35,499 nucleotides of DNA from a virus (lineage: Duplodnaviria > Heunggongvirae > Uroviricota > Caudoviricetes), in the IMG/VR virus record IMGVR_UViG_2718217860_000003. The stretch is one strand, 5' to 3'. This document shows, one piece after another, positions 8,754 to 12,322 of the stretch (its first letter is position 1; every line of letters begins with the position of its first letter). The position numbers and the translations under genes were made by a program. Below the pieces are notes generated by a model. That model worked only from the letters and a program-made list of their open reading frames with translations, was not told the DNA's origin and did no database searches.

Positions 8754-9653
8754 ATGATTGATCCACTTATTAGAAACTTACAGAGTGATATTGCACTACT
8801 CCAGCTTTATATCGCGCAACGCAAACAGGCAGGCTTTCATGACATGGAAAGAATAATTGAGTCATTGACCATCTTTATGTTTCGCGCGCTGAAAATGGGT
8901 GAACTGGTAAACATGAATCAGATTAAAGTTAATTTTCCCGCCATTGATTTAGCTGATAATAAAAACATGATAGCAGTTCAAGTTACTACGAATGCAAGTC
9001 CAGCAAAAATTAAAAAAACTATCGAATCTTTTGAGGAAGCAAATGAAATAGGAGAGAGTCTGAAAGATAAATACTCTACTTTATATATTTTTGGTTTTTG
9101 TAAAGCCTCAAGATACCTAACTCCAAGTTATTGTAAAATAATCGACCCCAGCTATTTCGTGAATGAACTTTGCGATAAAGCAGATGAAGATATGGTCCAG
9201 GATATGATTGACGCCATTCGACGCCATCATGATTATACATCATTACATCCATGGAGTGATAAAGATTCACTCGAAATTATACTCAATATTATTAATCGCA
9301 ATGCAATAAAACATCGGATGAGTTGCGAAGGCAGTCTGTCTGATATGCTCACTGGTTTAAAAGAAATTAATGAAGTAATTACAAAAGGAACAATTCAACG
9401 TAAGCAACGTTCAAAATCGATATCTGACTTCAAAGATCAAAGCATGGTGAAATTTATGAGAGGTGTAATGGATGATTTGTCTGTTATTCAAGCCATAGTG
9501 AACAAATCTAAAGTTAACCAAGGTGATATGGTTTATATAAGCCATGAAGATATGATTAATATTGATAAATTAAAAGCTAAAATAGCAAGTGATTCATCAG
9601 AGATTGCAAGGCTAAATAATATTGATATAACACTAAATGTTGTTGATTTATAA
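8754..9653 (+). CDS. Hypothetical protein encoded in an AT-rich accessory island (candidate defence/abortive-infection-type protein)
   Basis: 299-aa ORF in a visibly AT-rich block; no confident family match. Convergent with the membrane protein/methyltransferase operon. Confidence 0.7.
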   Translation: MIDPLIRNLQSDIALLQLYIAQRKQAGFHDMERIIESLTIFMFRALKMGELVNMNQIKVNFPAIDLADNKNMIAVQVTTNASPAKIKKTIESFEEANEIGESLKDKYSTLYIFGFCKASRYLTPSYCKIIDPSYFVNELCDKADEDMVQDMIDAIRRHHDYTSLHPWSDKDSLEIILNIINRNAIKHRMSCEGSLSDMLTGLKEINEVITKGTIQRKQRSKSISDFKDQSMVKFMRGVMDDLSVIQAIVNKSKVNQGDMVYISHEDMINIDKLKAKIASDSSEIARLNNIDITLNVVDL

Positions 9654-9967
9654 TTGTCGATTTAGCAAAACAGAGAATGCTTTGAAAGTTTCACCGAGAA
9701 ATATTTATTGTGAACCTCCTTATTGTTTATCGACTTTTACTCTCCGCTCATTGCAGTACTGTCGGAGAAGGCTACTATGTACAAGAAGCAGCTAACATAA
9801 GCGAGCATCACTATTGATATTAGGAAGAGTATATAAAAACTTCATGCTGAACCTTACAAAAGTAGGTAAACCGGCAATGGCCTAAGTGGCAGGGTCATGT
9901 TGATCCGGCACTGCCGAGCTAATAATTAACAAGCAAATCACTCTTTCTAATAATTTGTTGAAATAAA

Positions 9968-10627
9968 CTAAATATGTATATGTTTACCAACAACCACATA
10001 TGAACTACCTGCTTTGCTCCATGATTTTATTATTTCTAAATTATTATCTGAGCATATTTTACTTACAGTATCCACATCTAATAAACCATAGTAGAAAGCA
10101 TTACGAGAGTTTTGGTATATATACCCATGCAAATGTTTAATACCGCTCTCGTACCTCTTGAAATAAGAACTTTTGTATTGATTGACAATCAGTGCTTCAC
10201 CATCACTCTTTAATAATTCTCTAATCGCACTGAGGACTTTGTGAATTGTGGATTCACATGGAATTGCGGAAAGCACGTTTGCGCAAAGTATGAAATCATA
10301 ATGATTTGTTATTTTATCTATATTTTCATAAGAAACAATATTAGCATTCTTATAGTTATTTATCACGTAATCTGGAATCGTGGTTTGTACACCTCTGATA
10401 ATTTGCACTCTTTCTAGTTGTCTTCTGGAATCTAAAAATGTCACAGTTTCAAATTTATTTACTAATTGTTCTGAATATCTAAGTTTTCCACATCCAAAAT
10501 CAAGGGCATTGCCATTTTTATTAGTGCTTTCAATCTGTTTACAGAGATAGTTAGATGGCATAGTGTGCGGTTTCGCTGCATTTTCTGAACGTATGTTTAT
10601 TCCATTTATTTTGTAATTCAAAATCAA
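9968..10627 (-). CDS. Class I SAM-dependent methyltransferase (not a recognisable DNA methyltransferase)
   Basis: 219-aa ORF with SAM-binding motif I (ALDFGCGKLRYSEQL), an acidic post-I residue (VTFLDSRRQ) and a motif II-like segment (DFILCANVLSAIP). No DPPY/NPPY or PCQ motifs. Confidence 0.75.
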   Translation of the reverse strand: MILNYKINGINIRSENAAKPHTMPSNYLCKQIESTNKNGNALDFGCGKLRYSEQLVNKFETVTFLDSRRQLERVQIIRGVQTTIPDYVINNYKNANIVSYENIDKITNHYDFILCANVLSAIPCESTIHKVLSAIRELLKSDGEALIVNQYKSSYFKRYESGIKHLHGYIYQNSRNAFYYGLLDVDTVSKICSDNNLEIIKSWSKAGSSYVVVGKHIHI

Positions 10628-10633
10628 CCTCGT

Positions 10634-11341
10634 TTAAAAAATATTGTTATTGTTAAAGAATTCTTTTATTTTGCTATCAGGTATTTGTCTTACTTGGCTT
10701 TCTGTTCTTGGTTTAACTGATGCTATGAAAATAAGGAAGTCAAATGCGACAAGAGAAATAATCCACAACCAAAGATTAATTAAAGAGCCAGTAACAGAGA
10801 ATATATTTGTTAATTTGGCGATACTTATTATTAAAATAGTAACAAATGCGATTACTGTATGTTCAAAGAAAACCCAAAAGTAATAAACTTTGTTCCAGAA
10901 AAGTTCAACGTAATGTTTGTCTTTTAACTCTTTAACTTCTGGGTAATACAGTTTACTCATTACCTTGTGAGATTCATCAGTAGTTAATTTTCTCGTAACG
11001 CCTGCAATTTTTGCTAATGGTTTAATAATTAAATGACTATCCCACATCTTCCTTATTCCAATAATTTTTGCTACATTATTATGTAGATCTAAAGCTCCAC
11101 TAATTACTGACCAAAAAACTGAAGATGCAATTGGTAATATGCCAAAGGTTAATATCCATTTAATAAATTCCTCGTAGTCTTTAACGGGGGGGATATACTT
11201 GGCATTAATGCCAACCAATGGCATGTAGCCATAAATGACTAATGATAGGTAAAATATAAATGTAGTAATAAAAGTCGCCTTATGGAGCATAGGCAACATT
11301 TCATTATAACTCTTTGGTGGTTCTAACATTTTACTCTCCAA
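10634..11341 (-). CDS. Integral membrane protein (about 4 predicted TM helices), function unknown; forms an operon with the downstream methyltransferase
   Basis: 235-aa ORF with several long hydrophobic stretches; its stop lies 6 bp from the methyltransferase start on the same strand. Confidence 0.7.
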   Translation of the reverse strand: MESKMLEPPKSYNEMLPMLHKATFITTFIFYLSLVIYGYMPLVGINAKYIPPVKDYEEFIKWILTFGILPIASSVFWSVISGALDLHNNVAKIIGIRKMWDSHLIIKPLAKIAGVTRKLTTDESHKVMSKLYYPEVKELKDKHYVELFWNKVYYFWVFFEHTVIAFVTILIISIAKLTNIFSVTGSLINLWLWIISLVAFDFLIFIASVKPRTESQVRQIPDSKIKEFFNNNNIF

Positions 11342-12014
11342 ACATTCAAAAAAAAGCTAATCTTCTATAATAACGAAATTCAGCTGGCACAATTAAAGAT
11401 TAATTGCCACCAATTTCTTGATTTTATAATTTTATCTAAATGTTTTTGATTAATCTAGTCCTAAAAGAAACCTACTGCATAAATATTTATGCTGATGACC
11501 CACTCCCTGTTCGTTAACACATAGCAACGTTAGTAATGCATCCTAAGTGATCAATATTTTTGCTAGCTTCATCTGCTCGCTCAAAGGGAACTATAATGTT
11601 GGCTTGCGTGTGACTTGGCATGTTTAAAGAAGTGCTGGTGGTGACTGGTTGCTGTTTTCCATTTCCACAGAACAAAATCATAGAAACTATACCCAGTAGT
11701 TGTATTGAATCACTGACGAGACAGCCTCATATTTATCAGGACTGGTGTACGTCCAATACAGGAGGTTGTGGTGCTGGTTCTCAAATGTGCGCTGGCTATT
11801 GCTGCTGTAATGGCAATTTATTGTCTTGCTGTTGTTCTTATGGATCACCTTTCTGATTGATTTCATATTGGCGAGGTAACGGTAGTTAAGTAGAATTGCT
11901 GCGGGTGCTTGAGGCTATCTGCCTCGGGCATCAACACCAAAGGCAGATAGAGAAAAGCCCCAGTTAACATTACGCGTCCGGCAAGACGCTTAACATTAAT
12001 CTGAGGCCATATCT

Positions 12015-12227
12015 ATGCTCTACACACGTAGGTTAGCCTCTTACGTGCCGAAAGGCAAGGAGAAGCAGGCTATGAAGCAGCAAAAGGCGATGCTAATCGC
12101 CCTGATCGTCATCTGTTTAACCGTCATAGTGACGGCACTGGTAACGAGGAAAGACCTCTGCGAGGTACGAATCCGAACCGGTCAGACGGAGGTCGCTGTC
12201 TTCACAGCTTACGAACCTGAGGAGTAA
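12015..12227 (+). CDS. Mok-like leader ORF in frame with hokD (N-terminally extended reading frame)
   Basis: The track ORF starts 19 codons upstream of the Hok Met in the same frame. Confidence 0.35.
   Translation: MLYTRRLASYVPKGKEKQAMKQQKAMLIALIVICLTVIVTALVTRKDLCEVRIRTGQTEVAVFTAYEPEE
12072..12227 (+). CDS. hokD: Hok/Gef-family type I toxin (HokD/RelF-like)
   Basis: 51-aa product MKQQKAMLIALIVICLTVIVTALVTRKDLCEVRIRTGQTEVAVFTAYEPEE with AAGGAG RBS; single TM helix and conserved Hok C-terminus. Confidence 0.9.
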   Translation: MKQQKAMLIALIVICLTVIVTALVTRKDLCEVRIRTGQTEVAVFTAYEPEE

Positions 12228-12297
12228 GAGACCCGGCGAGGGAGAAATCCCTCGCCACCTCTGATGTGGCAGGCATCCTCAACGCACCCGCACTTAA

Positions 12298-12322
12298 CCC
12301 GCTTCGGCGGGTTTTTGTTTTT
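12298..12322 (+). terminator. Rho-independent terminator at the 3' end of the hokD transcript
   Basis: Hairpin CCCGC-TTCG-GCGGG followed by TTTTTGTTTTT; a second perfect hairpin GGCGAGGGA-GAAA-TCCCTCGCC lies at 12236-12257. Confidence 0.7.

Follow-up and report, generated by a model that had tools for sequence, protein, structure and literature searches.

The closest described relative of the toxin locus considered here is hokW-mokW-sokW of the Shiga toxin (Stx) phage 933W and of Sakai prophage Sp5. Experiments have shown that hokW-sokW is a functional type I toxin-antitoxin system and helps phage release after induction (PMC8621323). We analyzed a hok-family locus of this kind at positions 11342-12322 of a 35,499-nucleotide (nt) stretch of viral DNA (IMG/VR record IMGVR_UViG_2718217860_000003; Caudoviricetes), the whole of which is called the window below. 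Just upstream of hok, the window holds a 29-codon open reading frame (ORF) for a hydrophobic peptide. The region probably consists of two independent modules lying side by side in a Rac/Qin-like lambdoid prophage, namely a hok/mok/sok module and a gene for a small membrane peptide.

In the hok module itself, window positions 11884-12299 are 94% identical in DNA to 933W, and when the 933W annotation is transferred, mokW and hokW land exactly on ORFs of the window. The mok/hok/sok layout, the promoter, the pairing that closes the 5' end on the 3' end, and the terminator are common to both. The hokW gene of 933W/Sp5 and hokD of the K-12 prophage Qin occupy the same lambdoid place as the window hok, ahead of the rem/Q region. 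933W and Qin are without the small ORF 5' of hok; otherwise they show no essential difference from the window module.

The small ORF itself can be compared with three groups of described genes. With the toxins Fst/Ldr, TisB, Ibs, ShoB, DinQ and ZorO, its product shares a length of about 30 amino acids (aa), one transmembrane helix, a short polar or charged tail and location on a mobile element, and the window gene in addition adjoins a genuine type I locus. It differs from them in showing no similarity in sequence to any family and in having no long structured leader, and the search for an antitoxin RNA, in cis and across the window in trans, gave none. KdpF (29 aa), MgtS, AcrZ and CydX/AppX resemble the peptide in size and single-helix build, without homology (no NCBIfam or Pfam match at E <= 10). 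The likeness to prophage "moron" genes lies in an apparent promoter of its own within a prophage, to which the window gene adds a strong ribosome-binding site and the lack of a detected antisense partner. Unlike morons and small membrane proteins, however, it has no terminator of its own before hok.

The small reading frame upstream of hok

The features of the small ORF and its surroundings are as follows.

11705-11733, plus strand: promoter-like site of the small ORF (-35 TTGAAT at 11705-11710, 17-nt spacer, -10 CATATT at 11728-11733; predicted transcription start at about 11738-11740)
11760-11765, plus strand: Shine-Dalgarno sequence AGGAGG, 5 nt ahead of the start codon, read from the sequence
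11771-11860, plus strand: gene for a 29-aa hydrophobic peptide, MLVLKCALAIAAVMAIYCLAVVLMDHLSD (GTG at 11771, TGA at 11858-11860), recognized by conservation and by the ratio of non-synonymous to synonymous polymorphism (pN/pS); nothing annotated in RefSeq
11620-11856, plus strand: Cys-rich 78-aa ORF overlapping the small ORF in another frame, a frame artefact

Copies of the small ORF were collected with a degenerate pattern for its C-terminal half, which yielded more than 120 IMG/VR prophage loci, and 11 loci derived from BLAST were added, giving 131 in all. Codons 2-15 alone are free of ascertainment bias, since the search pattern constrained positions in the C-terminal half. An intact ORF of exactly 29 codons was present in 129 of the 131 copies. 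Within codons 2-15, pN/pS was 0.18 in the ORF frame versus 0.74 and 2.13 in the other two frames. Parsimony changes on a neighbor-joining tree were distributed over codon positions 1, 2 and 3 as 19:10:40, and the ratio of synonymous to non-synonymous changes was 34:35 in the ORF frame versus 17:49 and 9:57 out of frame. Replacements in the peptide were conservative (A/V/I/T, M/V/I, D/E, H/R and L/F). Furthermore, the ORF and its Shine-Dalgarno sequence were the best-conserved part in alignments of the most diverged copies, with majority identities per 10-nt window of 0.90-0.98 in the ORF (at least 0.94 in all but one) versus 0.7-0.9 in the flanks. The copy on the Shigella virulence plasmid (pINV) has ATG at the equivalent of GTG 11771, behind the same AGGAGG, which places the start codon at 11771. 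From these comparisons of sequence, we judge the 29-codon ORF to be a genuine gene that is under purifying selection.

The original prediction, made from the window alone, had pointed to a 29-codon hydrophobic ORF running from GTG at 11771 to 11860 after AGGAGG, had suggested that either this ORF or the overlapping Cys-rich 78-aa ORF could be an unannotated peptide or a frame artefact, and had proposed conservation across related loci as the test. The 29-codon ORF is in the sequence as described, and its intactness and frame-specific selection across related loci speak for a conserved gene. The 78-aa ORF fared differently: the ORF in this frame ranged from 11 to 125 codons among 83 unique sequences, indels in loci L006 and L007 interrupt it, and pN/pS in the frame was 2.13 and 1.14, so that its varying length, broken frame and ratios above 1 mark it as an artefact rather than a gene.

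The signals around the small ORF were conserved as well. The Shine-Dalgarno sequence was kept as CAGGAG or GGGAGG in nearly all of 48 unique full-length variants; it was weakened (AGAAAG, AGAAGA) in three of the 48, two of which have a frameshifted ORF. In most of the deeply diverged upstream types compared, the promoter hexamers and their exact 17-nt spacing were retained (TTGAAG, TTGAGT or TTGCTG, then CATATT) while the sequence of the spacer diverged, although one Escherichia albertii copy (L141) lacks the -35 element. Kept hexamers around a diverged spacer would be the signature of a sigma-70 promoter in use. Residues 2-24 of the peptide are almost wholly hydrophobic, with Lys5 as the sole charge, and the product is predicted to form a single transmembrane helix with an acidic C-terminal tail (M-D/E-H/R-L-S-D). 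The terminator scan found no terminator between the small ORF and the hok promoter. A terminator-like hairpin within the ORF (11795-11814) was set aside as a chance structure, since on inspection of the alignment by eye it is not conserved in L008 or in Shigella.

As for its distribution, about a third of the complete E. coli genomes (some 1,850 of 5,426) carry the small gene, as do the isolated phages Evi, Tritos, mEp460_ev081 and HannyBb and the virulence plasmids of Shigella (124) and enteroinvasive E. coli (EIEC; several). A scan of one genome per prokaryotic species recovered it only from E. coli/Shigella, E. ruysiae, E. albertii and three metagenome-assembled bins, which look like mis-binned E. 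coli contamination. The K-12 prophages Qin, DLP12 and Rac contain no copy, and the gene therefore has no K-12 name. Under 39 of 40 sampled E. coli matches there was no annotation, the exception being a DUF977 coding sequence (CDS) of NEBExpress fused by deletion. In GenBank and UniRef, the exact peptide is present just under the names "membrane protein", "hypothetical protein" and "conserved hypothetical protein" (REL606, BL21), and the starts assigned to it are inconsistent. The window gene is missed by most gene callers.

Homology searches placed the peptide in no described family. Neither the 29-aa nor the 78-aa product had a usable match in Pfam, NCBIfam, PHROGs or PADLOC, the sole hit (phrog_19319, E = 0.7) being noise. 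A HMMER search of 1.84 billion representative proteins returned just the same ORF with alternative starts and one spurious hydrophobic hit, and a literature search on the peptide sequences found no paper. The possibility that the peptide is a decayed duplicate of Hok was rejected, as there was no HOK_GEF match at E <= 10 and no likeness in DNA by eye; the Pas prophage small RNAs (sRNAs) were likewise rejected as a match for the locus, being located elsewhere in lambdoid prophages.

The copy on pWR100 of Shigella flexneri M90T (L011 4001-4087 = NZ_CP037924.1 90911-90997, minus strand) is intact, starts with ATG and is 76% identical to the 29-aa peptide. On the virulence plasmids of Shigella and EIEC, this copy has the same promoter geometry and lies about 290 nt 5' of icsP/sopA, with a decayed hok leader after it. 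The presence there of a small-ORF homologue and a decayed hok leader identifies the region upstream of icsP as a fragment of a lambdoid prophage.

The hok/mok/sok module and the DNA ahead of it

The second module spans about 11868-12322 and is a canonical hok/mok/sok type I toxin-antitoxin module, an ordinary member of a group already known. Its features are listed below.

11868-11896, plus strand: hok promoter TTGGCG-17-TAGAAT (promoter scan), with its -35 element 8 nt past the stop codon of the small ORF
11903-12322, plus strand: full-length hok mRNA (Rfam leader match, fold and terminator scan)
11953-12023, minus strand: predicted Sok-type antisense RNA, read from 12023 to 11953; coordinates moved over from the annotated sokW of 933W through a single BLAST piece at 94% identity
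12015-12227, plus strand: mok-like ORF of 70 codons from the ORF list, in frame with hok and sharing its stop codon; mokW of 933W by coordinate transfer
12072-12227, plus strand: hokD-type toxin gene, 51 aa (Pfam HOK_GEF; RefSeq "type I toxin-antitoxin system toxin HokD" in 100%-identical genomes)
about 12235-12256, plus strand: internal 3' hairpin of hok mRNA (fold)
12296-12313, plus strand: intrinsic terminator of hok mRNA, followed by a T-run (terminator scan and fold)

The Hok product matched PF01848 HOK_GEF at 81.6 bits (cut-off 22; E = 2.9e-23), and the Rfam hok/sok model RF01794 matched over its full length at 11903-12077 on the plus strand, with 114 bits (gathering score 59; E = 2.5e-26). 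The hok start was placed at 11903 since this position is both predicted by the TTGGCG-17-TAGAAT promoter and the first base of the Rfam match. The mRNA from 11903 to 12322 has a folding energy of -176.5 kcal/mol (z = -8.75), a value that was reached in none of 100 shuffles. In both the minimum-energy and the centroid fold, its 5' end at 11903-11914 (GGGUGCUUGAGG) pairs with a 3' fold-back element at 12277-12289 (CCUCAACGCACCC). Such long-range closure of the 5' end on the 3' end is typical of hok mRNAs. On the minus strand, a putative Sok promoter (TTGCCT at 12058-12053, 17 nt, TAACCT at 12035-12030) was read by eye, below the threshold of the scan, and would fit a Sok start at 12023. Rfam also matched the 3' end of the hok mRNA (12236-12317) weakly to isrK, an sRNA of Salmonella prophages, with 25.7 bits and thus below the gathering score of 50; this is probably just a likeness of hairpin and terminator.

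The organization of the DNA ahead of 11903 was revealed by searching 11342-11885 against the 5,426 complete E. coli genomes, which resolved three layers. The first, from 11342 to about 11559, occurs only with the cargo genes found in this window. The second, about 11560-11885, is present in thousands of genomes, with identities of 86-95%. In the third, many genomes, including O157:H7, keep just 11838-11885 beside hok, that is, about 45 nt made up of the last 23 nt of the small ORF and the hok -35 element; this position is a recurrent recombination breakpoint within the small ORF. Stx phages, phage Rac and many others have the hok module in common with the window only from about 11876-11884 on. 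The three layers, and the point at which the hok module of the other phages begins, show that the DNA 5' of 11903 does not belong to a hok leader but is made up of cargo-specific DNA and, after it, a separate conserved block (about 11560-11885).

Among the 118 loci with enough flanking sequence, hok comes next after the conserved block in 102; a convergent TehB/DUF1971 gene takes that place in 15, and the decayed hok leader of the Shigella plasmid in one. Many hok loci, including those of 933W, K-12 Qin and phage Rac, are without the block and the small ORF. As the block occurs without hok and hok loci occur without the block, the block is an independent module. At two of the loci without hok (L008 and L009), the small ORF converges on a 113-aa TehB/DUF1971 gene, and a GC-rich hairpin (GACCCG...CGGGTC) with a T-run on the minus strand lies about 150-190 nt 3' of the small ORF. 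This hairpin is likely the terminator of the TehB-like gene and is possibly bidirectional.

With regard to hok, the original prediction proved right on the hok-family toxin gene (12072-12227, HokD in RefSeq), on the in-frame mok-like frame upstream of it (12015-12227, annotated alike as mokW/hokW in 933W) and on the two 3' hairpins. It had also described 11342-12014 as one long untranslated leader holding Sok and the fold-back elements, and this part did not stand: the transcript begins at 11903, and the predicted Sok and the fold-back elements lie within 11903-12322, with none in 11342-11900.

Possible roles of the peptide and competing explanations

In the arrangement that we consider probable, the weak hok promoter would produce a stable hok mRNA shut by pairing of its 5' and 3' ends, and Sok, transcribed from the opposite strand (12023-11953), would block translation of mok and hence of hok. 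The stretch of about 11700-11885 would be a self-contained gene in which a sigma-70-type promoter and a leader of some 32 nt, including a strong Shine-Dalgarno sequence, precede 29 codons that start with GTG, and the prophage would express the peptide in the manner of a moron gene, from its own promoter. The 29-aa product would insert in the inner membrane as a single helix and affect the membrane itself or a protein in it; the Ala-rich face of the helix (A7, A11, A15) and two conserved motifs, Tyr-Cys-Leu and Met-Asp/Glu-x-Leu-Ser-Asp, could serve for helix-helix contact with a membrane partner, or for self-association. The transcript of the small gene may also read through into hok, or interfere with the hok promoter, since there is no terminator between the two and the stop codon is 8 nt from the hok -35 element. 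Transcription, membrane insertion and function of the small gene are all inferred here from its sequence.

Several observations weigh against the arrangement of two independent modules. The site TTGAAT-17-CATATT matches the consensus at eight of 12 positions and lies below the threshold of the promoter scan, and a table of transcription starts for M90T pWR100 obtained by differential RNA sequencing (dRNA-seq; PMC7132871 Table S3) has no entry close to the pINV copy, whether on the plus or the minus strand. Most copies were selected by a pattern on the C-terminal half, although the 11 loci derived from BLAST are free of this bias and agree. The 3' half of the ORF shows less synonymous variation, and part of the conservation of that half may be a constraint at the DNA or RNA level common with the hok promoter region. 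Moreover, no homologue of known function was found that would point to a mechanism.

According to one alternative, which we hold to be unlikely, the block is conserved as a non-coding element in which the ORF is incidental, whether as a regulatory region of the hok promoter, as part of a 5'-extended hok transcript or as a recombination boundary between lambdoid phages. The closeness of the stop codon to the hok -35 element with no terminator between them, the many genomes that retain just 11838-11885 beside hok with a breakpoint in the 3' end of the ORF, the lowered synonymous variation in the 3' half, and the conservation of about 20 nt past the stop codon even in loci without hok would all suit such an element. 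The low synonymous variation may indeed reflect overlap of the 3' half with the hok promoter region, or may have its reason in the breakpoint at 11838. What a non-coding element does not account for is that third positions change in excess and pN/pS is low in the ORF frame alone, the unbiased 5' half included, that the length and both ends of the ORF are fixed in 129 of 131 copies, that the Shine-Dalgarno sequence and the start codon are kept even through a change from GTG to ATG, and that the block is intact at loci without functional hok. The idea that the whole of 11342-12014 is an extended hok leader is scarcely credible. Adjacency alone speaks for it, together with the possible read-through from the small-ORF promoter, whereas the hok model and promoter put the 5' end at 11903, the closing pairing uses 11903-11914, functional hokW-sokW loci do without everything 5' of about 11884, and 11342-11559 is peculiar to one cargo.

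The original prediction had further suggested a type I toxin-like peptide. We consider it unlikely that a second, new type I system lies beside hok, with the 29-aa peptide as its toxin and an antitoxin RNA that escaped detection. By analogy with Fst/Ldr, TisB, Ibs, ShoB and ZorO, its size, hydrophobicity and charged tail would suit such a toxin; the gene is prophage-borne and adjoins hok, and the weak GTG start is found in all intact copies but one. However, when the minus strand was scanned for an antisense promoter or terminator, the check proposed with the prediction, none was found, weaker promoters falling below the threshold as the Sok promoter does. Complementarity to the small-ORF mRNA elsewhere in the window reached at most 12 nt, within the 9-15 nt (mostly 11) of shuffled controls. 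The leader is short, and folding (z = -0.29) gave no support for a structure that hides the ribosome-binding site; in the consensus fold, the covariation term was -1.43, with one compensatory pair out of 34. There were no tandem copies, and the inverted and direct repeats in 11340-11910 were only short chance pairs. Nor does the M90T dataset contain an antisense transcription start for the Shigella copy. A strong, exposed AGGAGG would be odd for a lethal peptide, and together with the short leader it appears to be a better fit for a small, tolerated membrane protein than for a lethal toxin. As neither an antisense or trans-acting RNA partner nor a conserved structured leader was found, the label "type I toxin" is unsupported, and the evidence leans against it.

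A more speculative proposal, to which we give similarly little weight, is that the peptide is a functional partner of membrane-damage modules, either as a new, Escherichia-specific type I-like toxin with an RNA partner outside the window or as a modulator of Hok at the protein level. If so, a Hok-modulating helix would delay or boost pore formation by Hok at prophage induction, as antiholins do with holins, and the position of the gene at the edge of a hotspot of defence cargo would reflect a role in lysis timing or abortive infection.

Prophage setting and cargo slot

The 981-bp stretch 11342-12322 is 100% identical to chromosomal prophage DNA in many E. coli strains, and the window region is the early-right part of a Rac/Qin-like lambdoid prophage. 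In CFSAN064035, the annotated order begins with cI/Cro-like regulators, YdaT, a replication protein and a DUF977 protein; it continues with a SMEK-domain protein on the plus strand, then a class I S-adenosylmethionine (SAM) methyltransferase and a 231-aa hypothetical protein on the minus strand; and it ends with hokD, rem, a hypothetical protein, a DUF968 protein, RusA and the Q antiterminator. RefSeq annotation is blank from the 231-aa gene (end at 11329-11341) to hokD (12072-12227). Two further features fall within this blank.

11342-11559, no strand: intergenic DNA specific to the cargo, lying upstream of the divergent genes 9968-11341 on the minus strand and outside the hok locus and the conserved block
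11560-11700, no strand: moderately conserved non-coding backbone segment (majority identity 0.72-0.85, with indels)

The former was matched by only 141-143 E. coli genomes, all with the same cargo, and other relatives align from about 11559-11577 on. The latter, about 140 nt long, lies downstream of many unrelated cargos; L007 has lost 14 nt of it, as seen in alignments A1 and A3 together with the conservation profile. It contained no conserved ORF and no Rfam match. Loci of the QueH type and a third locus type have other sequence in its place.

The small ORF and hok lie at the right edge of a hypervariable cargo slot, with the DUF977 gene of the replication region on one side and rem/DUF968/rusA/Q on the other. 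The slot itself, 8754-11341 in the window and its equivalents in L002-L010, lies between the DUF977 gene and the small ORF, and its contents differ by locus. In the window, it holds the SMEK protein, the methyltransferase and the 231-aa membrane-like protein, of which the SMEK protein matches the PADLOC defence model Aga_REase-PNTD (1.1e-20) and the methyltransferase weakly matches PADLOC mad2. Other loci have two hypothetical proteins, a RelA/SpoT-domain protein, NUDIX and HAD hydrolases, QueH, or DUF262 and YfgM-like proteins, and among the phages the slot contains an acetyltransferase (Evi) or a 445-aa hypothetical protein (Tritos). In NEBExpress(lowRF1) (NZ_CP174526.1; L144 1400-1640), a deletion joins the DUF977 CDS to DNA just 5' of the Shine-Dalgarno sequence of the small ORF; the QueH cargo and the small-ORF promoter, both kept in E. 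coli B (L010), were lost. This locus was rejected as an example of an empty site, being a deletion derivative and uninformative in that respect.

The hok/sok module adds nothing new to what is known of its group. The small gene, in contrast, is an addition to the catalogue of E. coli small proteins. Its carriers are about one complete E. coli genome in three, virulence plasmids of Shigella and EIEC, and active temperate phages. Although purifying selection acts on it, it is skipped by the RefSeq pipeline (the Prokaryotic Genome Annotation Pipeline, PGAP) and belongs to no family. As the fixed right border of the cargo slot, the small ORF could anchor the mining of prophage cargo and defence genes. 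If the peptide is toxic or interacts with Hok, it would extend the set of phage peptides that act on membranes.

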